Source: Escherichia coli (lineage in GTDB: Bacteria > Pseudomonadota > Gammaproteobacteria > Enterobacterales > Enterobacteriaceae). From it: a stretch of 64,000 nucleotides of DNA. Below the pieces are notes generated by a model. It did not search any database. It worked only from the letters and a program-made list of their open reading frames with translations, and was not told the origin of the DNA. A program made the translations under genes and the position numbers. Location: assembly GCF_036507355.1 (NCBI RefSeq), contig NZ_AP027877.1. One strand, 5' to 3'. Of this stretch, positions 2,761 through 58,584 are shown piece by piece (the stretch's first letter is position 1; each line of letters opens with the position of its first letter).

Positions 2761-3637
2761 GATGATCCTCCTCGTCATCGTCCACTTCCTTATTCGGGCC
2801 AATACCGATGTAGTGGAAAATCAACCCGGCAAAAGTGGCAATAAAGCCAGCCGCTGCCAGCGGTTTCAACGCGCCTTTCCACAGGCTTACCGAGGTGTCG
2901 ATCTTCGGATCTTTCGGCAGACCGTGATACAGCTCCGGCTGATCGGCGTGATGCAGCACGTACATAACGTGCGTACCACCGACCCCTTCCGGGTTGTAGA
3001 CGCCAGCATGTTCGTAACCACGCGCTTTCAGTTTCGCCACGCGCTGTTCCGCCAGCTCCAGCATCTCCTTCTTGGTGCCGAAGTGGATAGCCCCGGTCGG
3101 ACAGGTTTTCACACAAGCCGGTTCCTGGCCGACGCTGACGCGATCGACGCAGAGCGTGCATTTATATACCCGGTTATCCTCTTTGTTGAGGCGCGGAATA
3201 TTAAACGGACACCCGGCAATGCAGTAACCACAGCCGATGCAGTTTTCCGACTGGAAATCGACAATCCCGTTAGCGTACTGAATGATTGCACCAGCAGACG
3301 GGCACGCCTTCAGGCAGCCGGGATCTTCACAGTGCATACAGCCGTCTTTACGGATCAGCCACTCCAGCTTGCCGTTCTGTTCGGTTTCGCTAAAGCGCAT
3401 CACCGTCCAGGACTTGGCGCTCAGATCGGCGGGGTTATCGTAAACCCCGACGCAGTGCCCCACTTCATCACGGATGTCGTTCCACTCCGAACACGCCACC
3501 TGACAGGCTTTACAGCCGATACAGGTGGAAACGTCGATAAGTTTTGCGACTTCTGCTTTGTAATCACGCACCTGAGAAGGCGGCGTGATGGAGTTAGTTG
3601 CGGACCTTTTGATAATGTCCTGCGTTTCCATAGCCAT
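2753..3637 (-). CDS. fdnH: Formate dehydrogenase-N beta subunit (4Fe-4S)
   Basis: 294-aa ORF with multiple CxxCxxCxxxCP ferredoxin motifs; synteny. Confidence 0.9.
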
Positions 3638-54608: not shown

Positions 54609-54699
54609 GCGACTCCTCCGGCAAAACGGAAGTTTATCACTTGTGCGTTATAACGGACAAATGCTACGGTGCCTGTACGCTATAACGCACGAGGTGACT

Positions 54700-55872
54700 A
54701 TGCGTCTGTTTTCTATTCCTCCACCCACGCTACTGGCGGGGTTTCTGGCGGTATTAATTGGCTACGCCAGTTCAGCGGCAATAATCTGGCAAGCAGCGAT
54801 TGTCGCCGGAGCCACCACTGCACAAATCTCTGGCTGGATGACGGCGCTGGGGCTGGCAATGGGCGTCAGTACGCTGACTCTGACATTATGGTATCGCGTA
54901 CCTGTTCTCACCGCATGGTCAACGCCTGGCGCGGCTTTGTTGGTCACCGGATTGCAGGGACTAACACTTAACGAAGCCATCGGCGTTTTTATTGTCACCA
55001 ACGCGTTAATAGTCCTCTGCGGCATAACGGGACTCTTTGCTCGTCTGATGCGCATTATTCCGCACTCGCTTGCGGCGGCAATGCTTGCCGGGATTTTATT
55101 ACGCTTTGGTTTACAGGCGTTTGCCAGTCTGGACGGTCAATTTACGTTGTGTGGAAGTATGTTGCTGGTATGGCTGGCAACCAAGGCCGTTGCGCCGCGC
55201 TATGCGGTAATTGCCGCGATGATTATTGGGATCGTGATCGTTATCGCGCAAGGTGACGTTGTCACAACTGATGTTGTCTTTAAACCCGTTCTCCCCTCTT
55301 ATATTACCCCTGATTTTTCGTTTGCTCACAGCCTGAGCGTTGCACTCCCCCTTTTTCTGGTGACGATGGCATCGCAAAACGCACCGGGTATCGCAGCAAT
55401 GAAAGCAGCCGGATATTCAGCTCCTGTTTCACCATTAATTGTATTTACTGGATTGCTGGCACTGGTTTTTTCCCCTTTCGGCGTTTATTCCGTCGGTATT
55501 GCGGCAATCACCGCGGCTATTTGCCAAAGCCCGGAAGCGCATCCGGATAAAGATCAACGTTGGCTGGCAGCTGCCGTTGCAGGCATTTTCTATTTGCTCG
55601 CAGGTCTGTTTGGTAGTGCCATTACCGGGATGATGGCTGCCCTGCCCGTAAGTTGGATCCAGATGCTGGCAGGTCTGGCGCTGTTAAGTACCATTGGCGG
55701 CAGTTTGTATCAGGCGCTGCATAATGAGCGTGAGCGCGACGCGGCGGTGGTGGCATTTCTGGTAACGGCAAGTGGATTGACGCTGGTCGGGATTGGTTCT
55801 GCGTTTTGGGGATTAATTGCCGGAGGTGTTTGTTACGTGGTGTTGAATTTAATCGCTGACAGAAACCGATAA
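54700..55872 (+). CDS. ydcO: BenE-family membrane transporter
   Basis: ~390-aa polytopic membrane ORF from MRLFSIPPPTLLAGF. Confidence 0.8.
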   Translation: MRLFSIPPPTLLAGFLAVLIGYASSAAIIWQAAIVAGATTAQISGWMTALGLAMGVSTLTLTLWYRVPVLTAWSTPGAALLVTGLQGLTLNEAIGVFIVTNALIVLCGITGLFARLMRIIPHSLAAAMLAGILLRFGLQAFASLDGQFTLCGSMLLVWLATKAVAPRYAVIAAMIIGIVIVIAQGDVVTTDVVFKPVLPSYITPDFSFAHSLSVALPLFLVTMASQNAPGIAAMKAAGYSAPVSPLIVFTGLLALVFSPFGVYSVGIAAITAAICQSPEAHPDKDQRWLAAAVAGIFYLLAGLFGSAITGMMAALPVSWIQMLAGLALLSTIGGSLYQALHNERERDAAVVAFLVTASGLTLVGIGSAFWGLIAGGVCYVVLNLIADRNR

Positions 55873-55875
55873 TAA

Positions 55876-55899
55876 AAAGCGCCATCTAACGATGGCGCG
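55876..55899. terminator. Bidirectional hairpin between convergent ydcO and ydcL
   Basis: GCGCCATC-taac-GATGGCGC perfect 8-bp stem. Confidence 0.5.
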
Positions 55900-55906
55900 T
55901 CTGGAA

Positions 55907-56575
55907 CTACTTTTTGTTAACGTCAAACATGGTGGCATCGGTCGCCATGTCATCAATAACTTGTTTAATATTTTCGAAAGCCATTGGCGTACTTTCGTTA
56001 TTCAGGTCTTTACCTTCGCCCTGACGAACGACTTTGATAACCGGTTTATTAGTCGCTGCATCAATCAGCTCACCTTCAAAATACAAGCGAGTATCCATGG
56101 TACGGTGGCCTGTAGCCATTTGCGTCCCCGCAACCACTAATGCAACAGGAACCACTTCATAGAATTGCAGCCCTTCTTTGCTGGTATCTACACCGGTAAT
56201 GGCCCCACGGAAAATCAGACTACGCGGCCCCGCGGTGGTAACCAGTGGTTTACGCTGCGCTATCGCTTCTTTCATTTCGGTGTTGGTATAGTTCAAAATT
56301 TTATCCAGAACTTTCTGCCCTACCTGGGTCGAAGGTTTCGGTACCGGATAATAAGTGATTGGGTTCCAGACGATGCTGTCATATTTGCTTTGATCAAAAC
56401 TCGGGTCTACCCAACGTAAAACCGGTTTACCTGTAGCCGAGGTTGTTTCTTTTAAATCAGAGTAATTGTTTAAAAAACCAGAATATTTATCTGGCTGGGT
56501 GATTTTAGAGGCACAACCAGACAGAGCCAACAAGCCGCATAAAGCTGCAACTTTCGCAAATGATGTGGTACGCAT
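55907..56575 (-). CDS. ydcL: Lipoprotein (DUF3313 family)
   Basis: 222-aa ORF with lipobox LALSGC. Confidence 0.8.
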   Translation of the reverse strand: MRTTSFAKVAALCGLLALSGCASKITQPDKYSGFLNNYSDLKETTSATGKPVLRWVDPSFDQSKYDSIVWNPITYYPVPKPSTQVGQKVLDKILNYTNTEMKEAIAQRKPLVTTAGPRSLIFRGAITGVDTSKEGLQFYEVVPVALVVAGTQMATGHRTMDTRLYFEGELIDAATNKPVIKVVRQGEGKDLNNESTPMAFENIKQVIDDMATDATMFDVNKK

Positions 56576-56878
56576 GAATAGTTTCCTGAGATGATTATAT
56601 TACTTTTTAAGTTATAGCAAAAAGCGCCGCTTCGTGTTGTGGCAAAAAAAGTGTTGGTGAAAATAAATTTTTTTAGCCCCTTTTCAGACGACATAGTCAA
56701 TGCCGAAAAAGGGGCTAAGTCAATCATCAGTAGTTAAATTTCAGTAAGTTAAGCTGCTAAAAAACTTCGACTACCGTGATTAATTTCACATCCCTTCGAT
56801 AAAAAATATGCTTACCGAAAAGAAGGACAGTAAACCATCTCAGCGTGGGGAATTTTCACGCGCTTTGTTCTTACCGGG

Positions 56879-57472
56879 TCATTTTTTACGTGCCAGCATC
56901 GTGGCGAAACGCAGTTTAATACGATTACCGTTGGCGTCGGTGCGGTGCAGCTCGCCGACGTCTTCATTGTATTTCACCATCTCCCAGCCTTCGTAATATC
57001 GACGTAATTCTCTCTCTTTGAAGGCAAACGGGAAGCCGACGGTACATGGATAATCAGCGGTATCCATCGCCGCCACAATCAGGTTGTAACCGCCAGGTTT
57101 CGTGCAACGTTGCATATTGGCAATCAGCCCTGGGATGGTTTTAGCCTCAAGGAACATCAGCACCACAGTCGAAAGAATAAAATCGTACTGTCCAGCAAAT
57201 GTGAGGTTATTCAGATCAACGACCCGAGTGTGTAAATTATCCAGATTTTCAATAGATTTAATGCGCTCGACGTTGGCGATACTCATGGCATTTTTATCCC
57301 ATGCGTCAACATCATAACCATTGGCTGCCAGGTAAAGACTGTTACGACCATTGCCACAGCCCAGATCCAGCGTTTTACCCGGTTTAACCACTTTCACCGC
57401 TTCCAGTACTTCAGAGTGTGTGCGGGTTAATTCATATTTATCAGTAAAATAGTTTTCGTCACGAATGATCAT
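56879..57472 (-). CDS. tehB: Tellurite methyltransferase (SAM-dependent)
   Basis: 197-aa ORF with SAM-binding motif [11 protein letters not shown]. Confidence 0.9.
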
Positions 57473-58461
57473 TCTTTGTCCTCTGCTTTCATTAAAACGG
57501 CGCGCTCGGTTCTGACTAACAATTTTCCCTGCATCAGAAGTGCAAAAGTACGGATGAGCAGTATTGCAATAATAAAATTGGTAAAGATAAACAGCGGCAC
57601 CGCCAGCGTATGGAAAAATCCATTATCGCTGCCACTCCCCAGATGCAAACCGGTGGTTGCCAGTGCAGATACGCCGAACGAGAAACTCCAGAATGAAGCA
57701 TTAAATGGCTGGGAGAGATACCATGGCATCAGACGTAGCATAAACAGCAGTTGCAGCAGTCCATAACCGAAAAGCATTTTCGCCAGCGTGTCACCCTCGC
57801 CGCCGTTGACGCTCAGCCAGGCACTACAGGCCACCAGCGCAGGAGCGAGCTGAATGCCGAGTGATGTCCGCAGTGCCGTGGGTAATTCTCCCGAACTGCG
57901 CAGACGCTGCAAGATCACCGGTTCAAGGCTTAGCCATGAGAAAACGCCTGCGCCTAAAAACACCAGACCGGCGTCGGTGTAGCCCAACGCACCACAGGCC
58001 ATTGCGCTGATAAAGTTGTTGGCAACTGTCGGCAGATACAGTCCAGGCGTGGTAGCTTCTTCAGGGTGAGATCCGCGCCATAATCCCGCAGTTTGCCAGG
58101 CGGCATAAGCCAACTGAACCACGACACCAAAACTGAACAGGCACACCGCCAGTGGGCGAAACCACGGAACAAAACCAATCGCCACCAGCATCGTCGTTGC
58201 CGGAAACAAACTCACAAAACTGCTCAGCACTGGATGGCGAACTTCCGCCAGCACGCTATGCGGAAAGCGTATGAGTCGGGCAATAAATGCGCTAGTCAAT
58301 AATCCCCAGATGATCATCGCCAGAATCACCAGCCCATCCCCTAACCAGTGGCTGACCTGCCAAACCTGGCTGGCATAGCGCCAGGCAAATCCCATCCCTA
58401 TCGTCCCCAACACAATACCAAAGTAGCCTGCCGGCAAATTGAGCACTTTATCGCTCTGCAT
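57469..58461 (-). CDS. tehA: Tellurite resistance / dicarboxylate exporter family membrane protein
   Basis: 330-aa membrane ORF from [15 protein letters not shown]; ATGA overlap with tehB. Confidence 0.85.
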
Positions 58462-58584
58462 CTTCTTACTCATTTTGTTTAATTTATAAAGTATATTTGA
58501 AATGCATTTTATGGAATTTTCTCGAGCATAGCCAGAGCCGCAGAATTTGCTACGGTTATAGTAAGTCACCTGTGGGAAAACGCT

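Follow-up and report, generated by a model that had tools for sequence, protein, structure and literature searches.

The canonical intrinsic terminator of E. coli is a stable, GC-cored RNA stem-loop on the transcribed strand, co-directional with the operon and past its last stop codon, with a loop of 3–8 nt, a stem of ∼5–14 bp and a U-tract that starts 0–2 nt after the stem. Release is factor-independent and leaves a 3′ end 7–9 nt after the stem, and with E. coli RNA polymerase a hairpin drives release efficiently only when an rU:dA hybrid is present. REP elements (e.g., that of malE-malF) are intercistronic or 3′ stabiliser hairpins. A further class was described by Dar & Sorek in 2018, who reported that, in Rho-dependent transcripts of E. 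coli, the 3′ ends seen at steady state closely follow stable stem-loops, which have intrinsic terminator-like stems, reduced U, no upstream A-tract and a mild downstream excess of C over G, and which shield the transcript against PNPase and RNase II (PMC6061677). Here we describe a hairpin downstream of tehAB, the tellurite-resistance operon, which we tentatively liken to the last of these classes.

The DNA analyzed (hereafter the window) is a 64-kb stretch of E. coli chromosome; the 341 bp around the hairpin had a match in 5,412 of 5,426 complete E. coli genomes, with 95–100% identity and with tehB and ydcL as the annotated genes. On the minus strand of the window lie tehA (57469–58569), tehB (56879–57472), which is the upstream gene and whose transcript contains the hairpin, and ydcL (55907–56575), the downstream gene, which has its own promoter. 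The whole stem-loop occupies 56673–56718 on the same strand, so that its RNA sense is that of tehAB and ydcL, and it sits where the preliminary description had put it, within the 303-bp tehB-ydcL spacer, 160 nt past the tehB stop codon and 97 nt ahead of the ydcL ATG. Its sequence, TTAGCCCCTTTT-cagacgacatagtcaatgccga-AAAAGGGGCTAA, is likewise as first described, with two perfect 12-nt arms around a 22-nt spacer; the 12-nt-arm inverted-repeat pattern had a single match in the window and none in 100 dinucleotide-preserving shuffles. It is one of four perfect inverted repeats with arms of at least 11 nt and spacing of at most 40 nt in the window, and it is unannotated in K-12 MG1655 (NC_000913.3, ∼1502315–1502360, plus strand) and in all RefSeq records sampled.

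More than 99% of 5,426 E. coli genomes carry the hairpin, at a median of one place per genome (5,406 genomes) and always at the tehB-ydcL locus. Several alleles exist, of which the perfect 12-bp version is one; the exact 71-mer that contains it was found in only 22 of ∼5,400 E. coli genomes. The K-12 allele has CTGA in place of CTAA (CUGA in the RNA), so that the base of the stem is a U.G pair; the A-run after the stem comprises five to seven A depending on the strain; and the variants also include rare point changes and one internal duplication. In E. coli FCI1 (L086, NZ_CM172811.1, ∼247–360), short segments within the hairpin are tandemly duplicated (GCCCCTTTTTCGGCA twice and TTTTTCGGCATTGACTATGTC twice), which reflects either slippage of replication at the palindrome or an error of assembly. 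A palindromic intergenic element with IS609 one gene away in K-12 might be taken for a dispersed repeat or mobile remnant, for example a REP/BIME unit, a MITE or a subterminal hairpin of the IS200/IS605 type that is related to IS609, but this reading is effectively refuted by the single-copy result, and all that the element shares with IS609, with the rest of the window or with the K-12 locus are chance words of 8–11 nt. REP stabilisers are comparable in that they too are stable intergenic hairpins between co-directional genes that could block 3′ exonucleases; they differ in that the tehAB hairpin is single-copy and without a REP consensus, and in that ydcL has a promoter of its own.

As had been proposed as a check, we folded the RNA, and a stable stem-loop was obtained on the tehAB sense strand, at −24.4 kcal/mol (z = −7.0), as compared to −18.2 kcal/mol (z = −4.2) for RNA of the opposite strand. 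In the sense fold, the lower helix pairs a 5′ arm with sense sequence UUAGCCCCUUUU (56707–56718) and a 3′ arm with sense sequence AAAAGGGGCUAA (56673–56684), both on the minus strand, and six extra pairs form inside the 22-nt spacer. These six make up an upper helix, CGGCAU/AUGUCG (56689–56705, minus strand), which includes a G.U pair, closes a 5-nt loop (UGACU) and is confined to the sense RNA of E. coli proper, so that the whole is an 18-bp interrupted stem with a 3-nt bulge. The loop of about 20 nt given in the preliminary description thus agrees with the DNA spacer but not with the sense RNA, in which that spacer is partly paired and only five nucleotides are left in the loop; with 18 pairs, the structure is indeed larger than typical intrinsic terminators, as had been remarked. 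The energy advantage of the sense strand is −7.7 kcal/mol in K-12 and −8.6 kcal/mol in the closest relative, L003, but only −0.9 to −2.7 kcal/mol elsewhere in Escherichia, and a strand-neutral 100-nt folding test gave a modest overall sense bias, with none for L004–L007, in which the upper helix is not conserved. Two further structures were considered and rejected. A pseudoknot between the U-run and the A-run is geometrically impossible because the connecting loop would have 0–1 nt in which to cross a stem of 12–13 bp, and an alternative upstream stem partner that would turn the internal U5 into a U-tract fails for want of a GGGGC upstream to pair.

The hairpin resembles canonical terminators in having a stable GC-cored stem-loop in the co-directional RNA past the last stop codon of its operon, and in occupying the position at which other genera have a typical terminator. 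It departs from them at the 3′ side of the stem, where the sense tail is AAAAAAAUUUAUUUU (in longer form AAAAAAAUUUAUUUUCACC) and where, in the place of the missing U-tract, an A-run followed by a T-run (sense AAAAAUUUAUUUU; 56660–56672, minus strand) abuts the stem. The U-tract-less tail is common to all Escherichia lineages examined, and on the opposite strand a U-tract after the hairpin is also absent. By a d'Aubenton-Carafa-type measure, the tail scores 1.58–2.36 (1.6 after the full stem and 2.3 after GGGGC), which is random-like, arbitrary sequence scoring 1.7 and the ydcL terminator 5.19. The standard predictors are silent as well: a consensus terminator scan called the ydcL terminator and left the hairpin uncalled on both strands, and a published genome-wide TransTermHP table assigns two terminators to b1431|b1432 but none to the b1430|b1431 spacer (PMC4634151). 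Set beside canonical dimensions, the sense RNA has a 5-nt loop but an unusually long, bulged stem of 18 pairs; the DNA spacer measures 22 nt, and the upper helix is unconserved elsewhere in Escherichia. Because the U-tract is missing after the stem, we do not regard the hairpin as a classical self-sufficient terminator. The earlier suggestion that it is probably the tehAB terminator is therefore partly supported: the hairpin is co-directional, lies downstream of tehB at the terminator position of related genera and indeed marks where the tehAB unit ends, yet it does not belong to the canonical intrinsic terminators.

The main rival to the explanation that we favor is nevertheless some form of weak, non-canonical intrinsic termination, in which the strong hairpin alone, perhaps assisted by NusA/NusG and by a fairly weak rA:dT hybrid, releases some of the polymerases. 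Such a role would suit a very stable, GC-cored stem that is co-directional with tehAB, stands directly before the next promoter and holds a site held by canonical terminators in other genera, and it would insulate the ydcL promoter from tehAB read-through. The requirement of E. coli RNA polymerase for an rU:dA hybrid counts against it, however, as do the lack of a U-tract within 7–8 nt of the stem, the random-like tail score and the failure of both the consensus scan and TransTermHP to call the site, and we consider it unlikely, if the most serious of the alternatives.

The anatomy is matched better by the stem-loops of Dar & Sorek, and on this likeness we favor, with less than even confidence, the explanation that the tehAB sense strand gives rise to an RNA stem-loop, which marks and protects the 3′ end of the tehAB mRNA upstream of the ydcL promoter. 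The stem is stable, its 3′ side is not U-rich, its upstream flank (CUGAUGAUUGAC) has no A-tract, and C exceeds G downstream, with a C/G ratio of 2.1 (17 C, 8 G) in the 78 nt after the hairpin (56666–56589) as compared to 0.62 in the upstream untranslated region, although this excess is mild and confounded by the ydcL promoter block. Polymerase would thus transcribe through the hairpin, and the transcript end would be made slightly downstream, either by Rho acting on the C-rich, G-poor 78 nt or by endonucleolytic cleavage in the A/U-rich strand abutting the stem; the stem-loop would then block exonucleases and so define the tehAB 3′ end. The A/T run at 56660–56672 could serve as an RNase E-type A/U-rich single strand, as an UP element-like part of the ydcL promoter, or as both; the hairpin of Citrobacter has a homologous A-run after it. 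The composition argument is not an independent one because the A/T tract and the C-rich block belong to the conserved ydcL promoter region, which could by itself explain the modest excess of C. Moreover, there would be little room for Rho because only ∼95 nt lie between the hairpin and the translated ydcL open reading frame, and this short untranslated space, which is also a promoter, sets the locus apart from the Dar & Sorek cases. For the tehAB hairpin, the structure, its strand preference in E. coli, its conservation, its position and the missing U-tract are observed, and from these we infer a protective role and the involvement of Rho or an RNase. The Term-seq and bicyclomycin tables of Adams et al. 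(2021) have no entry between 1499587 and 1503424 on the plus strand, and neither they nor TERMITe list a 3′ end for tehB or ydcL. This silence is weak evidence because the canonical ydcL terminator is also missing from the Adams tables; tehAB and ydcL were probably too poorly expressed under the conditions used.

For comparison among relatives, 80 ydcL loci (L003–L082) were fetched, one genome per species. The hairpin was found in all five non-coli Escherichia lineages, with a nearly invariant core (GCCCCUUUU/AAAAGGGGC). Across five Escherichia lineages, 70% of hairpin columns are invariant, as compared to 27% in the tehB-proximal 3′ untranslated region, 84% in a CRP-like site within that region and 91% in the ydcL promoter block. 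The 160 nt of tehB 3′ untranslated region upstream of the hairpin (56719–56878, minus strand) are poorly conserved except for the CRP-like site. Pairing was preserved in 90% of the Escherichia pair cells, versus 38–65% when partners were slid, and the sense RNA, but not its complement, can accommodate several one-sided substitutions as wobble pairs (in L006 C>U, in K-12 A>G, in L003 U>C together with A>G). Covariation within Escherichia, on the other hand, was not significant, with one compensatory pair and with shuffles that often equaled the observed values. In L003 (Escherichia sp. MOD1-EC7003, 2823–3001), a 126-bp deletion has removed most of the tehB 3′ untranslated region, the CRP-like site included, but spares the hairpin, which now stands ∼30 nt from the tehB stop codon.

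These data bear on whether the hairpin has any function at all. It could be what is left of a former terminator after decay or rearrangement, not yet erased owing to the small divergence among Escherichia species, and the non-significant covariation would be in keeping with this, as would the several stem-base and upper-stem positions that are broken in some Escherichia species and the high conservation of the entire stretch from hairpin to ydcL, which would allow the hairpin to hitch-hike with the promoter block. A functionless relic is harder to reconcile with the excess of invariant columns over the neighboring untranslated region, with survival of the adjacent deletion in L003, with near-universal presence in E. 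coli and with a counterpart in sister genera that is clearly under selection for pairing (see below), and we judge it rather unlikely.

Across the 80 loci, a hairpin lies ∼95–105 nt before the ydcL ATG in nearly every case, both where tehB is the upstream gene and where an unrelated gene of ∼535 codons takes its place, which is what one would predict if the upstream transcription unit ends there. Textbook terminators, with a U-tract and with the conserved block of the ydcL promoter (AATTTGTGC...TTTTTGTCACAAC...TTTGCTATAAC) after them, occupy the site in Enterobacter, Klebsiella, Leclercia, Trabulsiella, Yokenella and others, whereas in Escherichia and in Citrobacter/Salmonella an A-run follows the hairpin and the U-tract is absent. 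The locus thus exemplifies terminator turnover at a fixed position. The Citrobacter/Salmonella hairpin (CTGCGTTCAGCA-U7-TGCTGAGCGCAG, then an A-run) lies ∼95–103 nt from ydcL and shares with that of Escherichia the order X, U-run, X′, A-run, the lack of a U-tract after the stem and the occurrence of sense-strand G.U pairs. Its stem sequence is unrelated, however, and its U-run forms the loop rather than part of the stem; a U6–7 loop is conserved in the post-tehB hairpins of L008–L027 (∼2880–2915; Citrobacter and Salmonella arizonae and diarizonae), with the A-run after it. The two also differ in covariation, which is not demonstrable in Escherichia but strong in Citrobacter/Salmonella, where six of eight pairs show compensatory double changes, 94.7% of cells are paired (28–43% with slid partners), none of 500 shuffles reached the observed values, and many U.G pairs are possible only in the sense RNA. 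A U-less sense-strand hairpin is thus kept by selection at this position in the sister clade, which lends a function of the Escherichia hairpin more plausibility than could be drawn from the few variants of that hairpin itself.

The ydcL promoter and leader block (56576–56659, minus strand) comprises CACCAACACTTTTTTTGCCACAAC, a sigma-S-like GCTATAAC (56611–56618), TATAAT (56594–56599) and the Shine-Dalgarno sequence AGGAA. The ydcL upstream block, TTTTTG(C/T)CACAAC ... TTTGCTATAAC, is conserved across many enterobacterial genera and includes a sigma-S-type −10 element with C at −13, in agreement with a SELEX peak for the RpoS holoenzyme in the tehB-ydcL spacer (PMC5493296). In most non-Escherichia genera, the ydcL leader has a TGCATA-N-TGCA palindrome where Escherichia has TATAAT.

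With this promoter ∼70–115 bp downstream of the repeat, with the sigma-S polymerase peak in the same spacer (PMC5493296) and with the spacer sequence CATTGACTAT invariant in Escherichia, the repeat might instead act as DNA, as a protein-binding operator or as part of the upstream regulatory region of ydcL. We regard a DNA-level role as improbable. The arm centers are 34 bp apart, which would be unusual for an operator, and the DNA symmetry is not conserved across relatives, since the one-sided changes break it yet preserve wobble pairs in the RNA, and since the sister genera have a quite different, unrelated stem in the same place. Covariation in those genera without conservation of sequence is the signature of a structure and not of a recognition sequence. 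A promoter inside or beside the hairpin was also considered and rejected: the two conserved TTGACT words have no usable −10 element at 16–18 nt, and the promoter scan called none.

The CRP-like site (56775–56790; sense TGTGA-AATTAA-TCACG) belongs to the tehB 3′ untranslated region and has its center 64 nt upstream of the hairpin. The motif is perfect (TGTGA-N6-TCACA) in K-12 as well as in four further Escherichia lineages and is conserved inside an otherwise variable stretch, although one match of this kind in the window is not unusual by chance. It raises the further alternative that a CRP-dependent promoter in the spacer starts a sense transcript just upstream of the hairpin, which would then stabilise the 5′ end or form the body of a short RNA. 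No promoter could be placed at class I or class II spacing from the site on either strand, the distance to any −10-like hexamer being wrong for both, so that a CRP-driven sense promoter was rejected, and none was called by the scan. A small RNA would, moreover, lack a U-tail to end it, and in an Rfam 15 scan of the spacer the best scores (13–21 bits, E ≥ 0.14) were far under the gathering scores and are noise. A leader or small RNA is accordingly very improbable. A small open reading frame that runs from ATGATTGAC through the hairpin (56470–56727, minus strand) was rejected because its frame shifts with the strain-dependent length of the A-run, E. albertii lacks its ATG and a Shine-Dalgarno sequence is missing. 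On the plus strand, antisense to the tehB 3′ end, the scan called a promoter-like site (56785–56812) overlapping the CRP-like site and, ∼30 nt on, a terminator-like hairpin (56843–56861); this pair is probably due to chance because the terminator-like hairpin is unconserved in other Escherichia species.

Taken as a protective 3′ stem-loop, the hairpin is an ordinary feature of a known kind, one more well-conserved example among the U-less 3′ stem-loops of E. coli. Its description refines the map of the tehAB and ydcL units (tehAB without a canonical terminator, ydcL with a conserved promoter of its own) and has little import beyond annotation. Because Escherichia and Citrobacter/Salmonella share the layout of a GC segment, a U-run, a complementary segment and an A-run, with selection on pairing in the sister clade, one may speculate that the layout is a distinct conditional device, such as a processing or termination switch that sets tehAB read-through into the sigma-S-dependent ydcL and that is possibly linked to the CRP-like site, but we give this only a slight chance.

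Two observations concern the DNA beyond ydcL. The window has an empty IS609 site at 55872–55907, and ydcL and ydcO are 34 bp apart, whereas in K-12 and in strain EC1515 IS609 (insQ and a tnpA pseudogene) stands directly after the bidirectional ydcL/ydcO terminator GCGCCATCGTTAGATGGCGC (55879–55898). Further on, the divergent ydcN(sutR)-ydcO spacer contains a 20-nt imperfect inverted repeat (54635–54693; CTTGTGCGTTATAACGGACA / TGTACGCTATAACGCACGAG), which is operator-like and perhaps a putative site for SutR.
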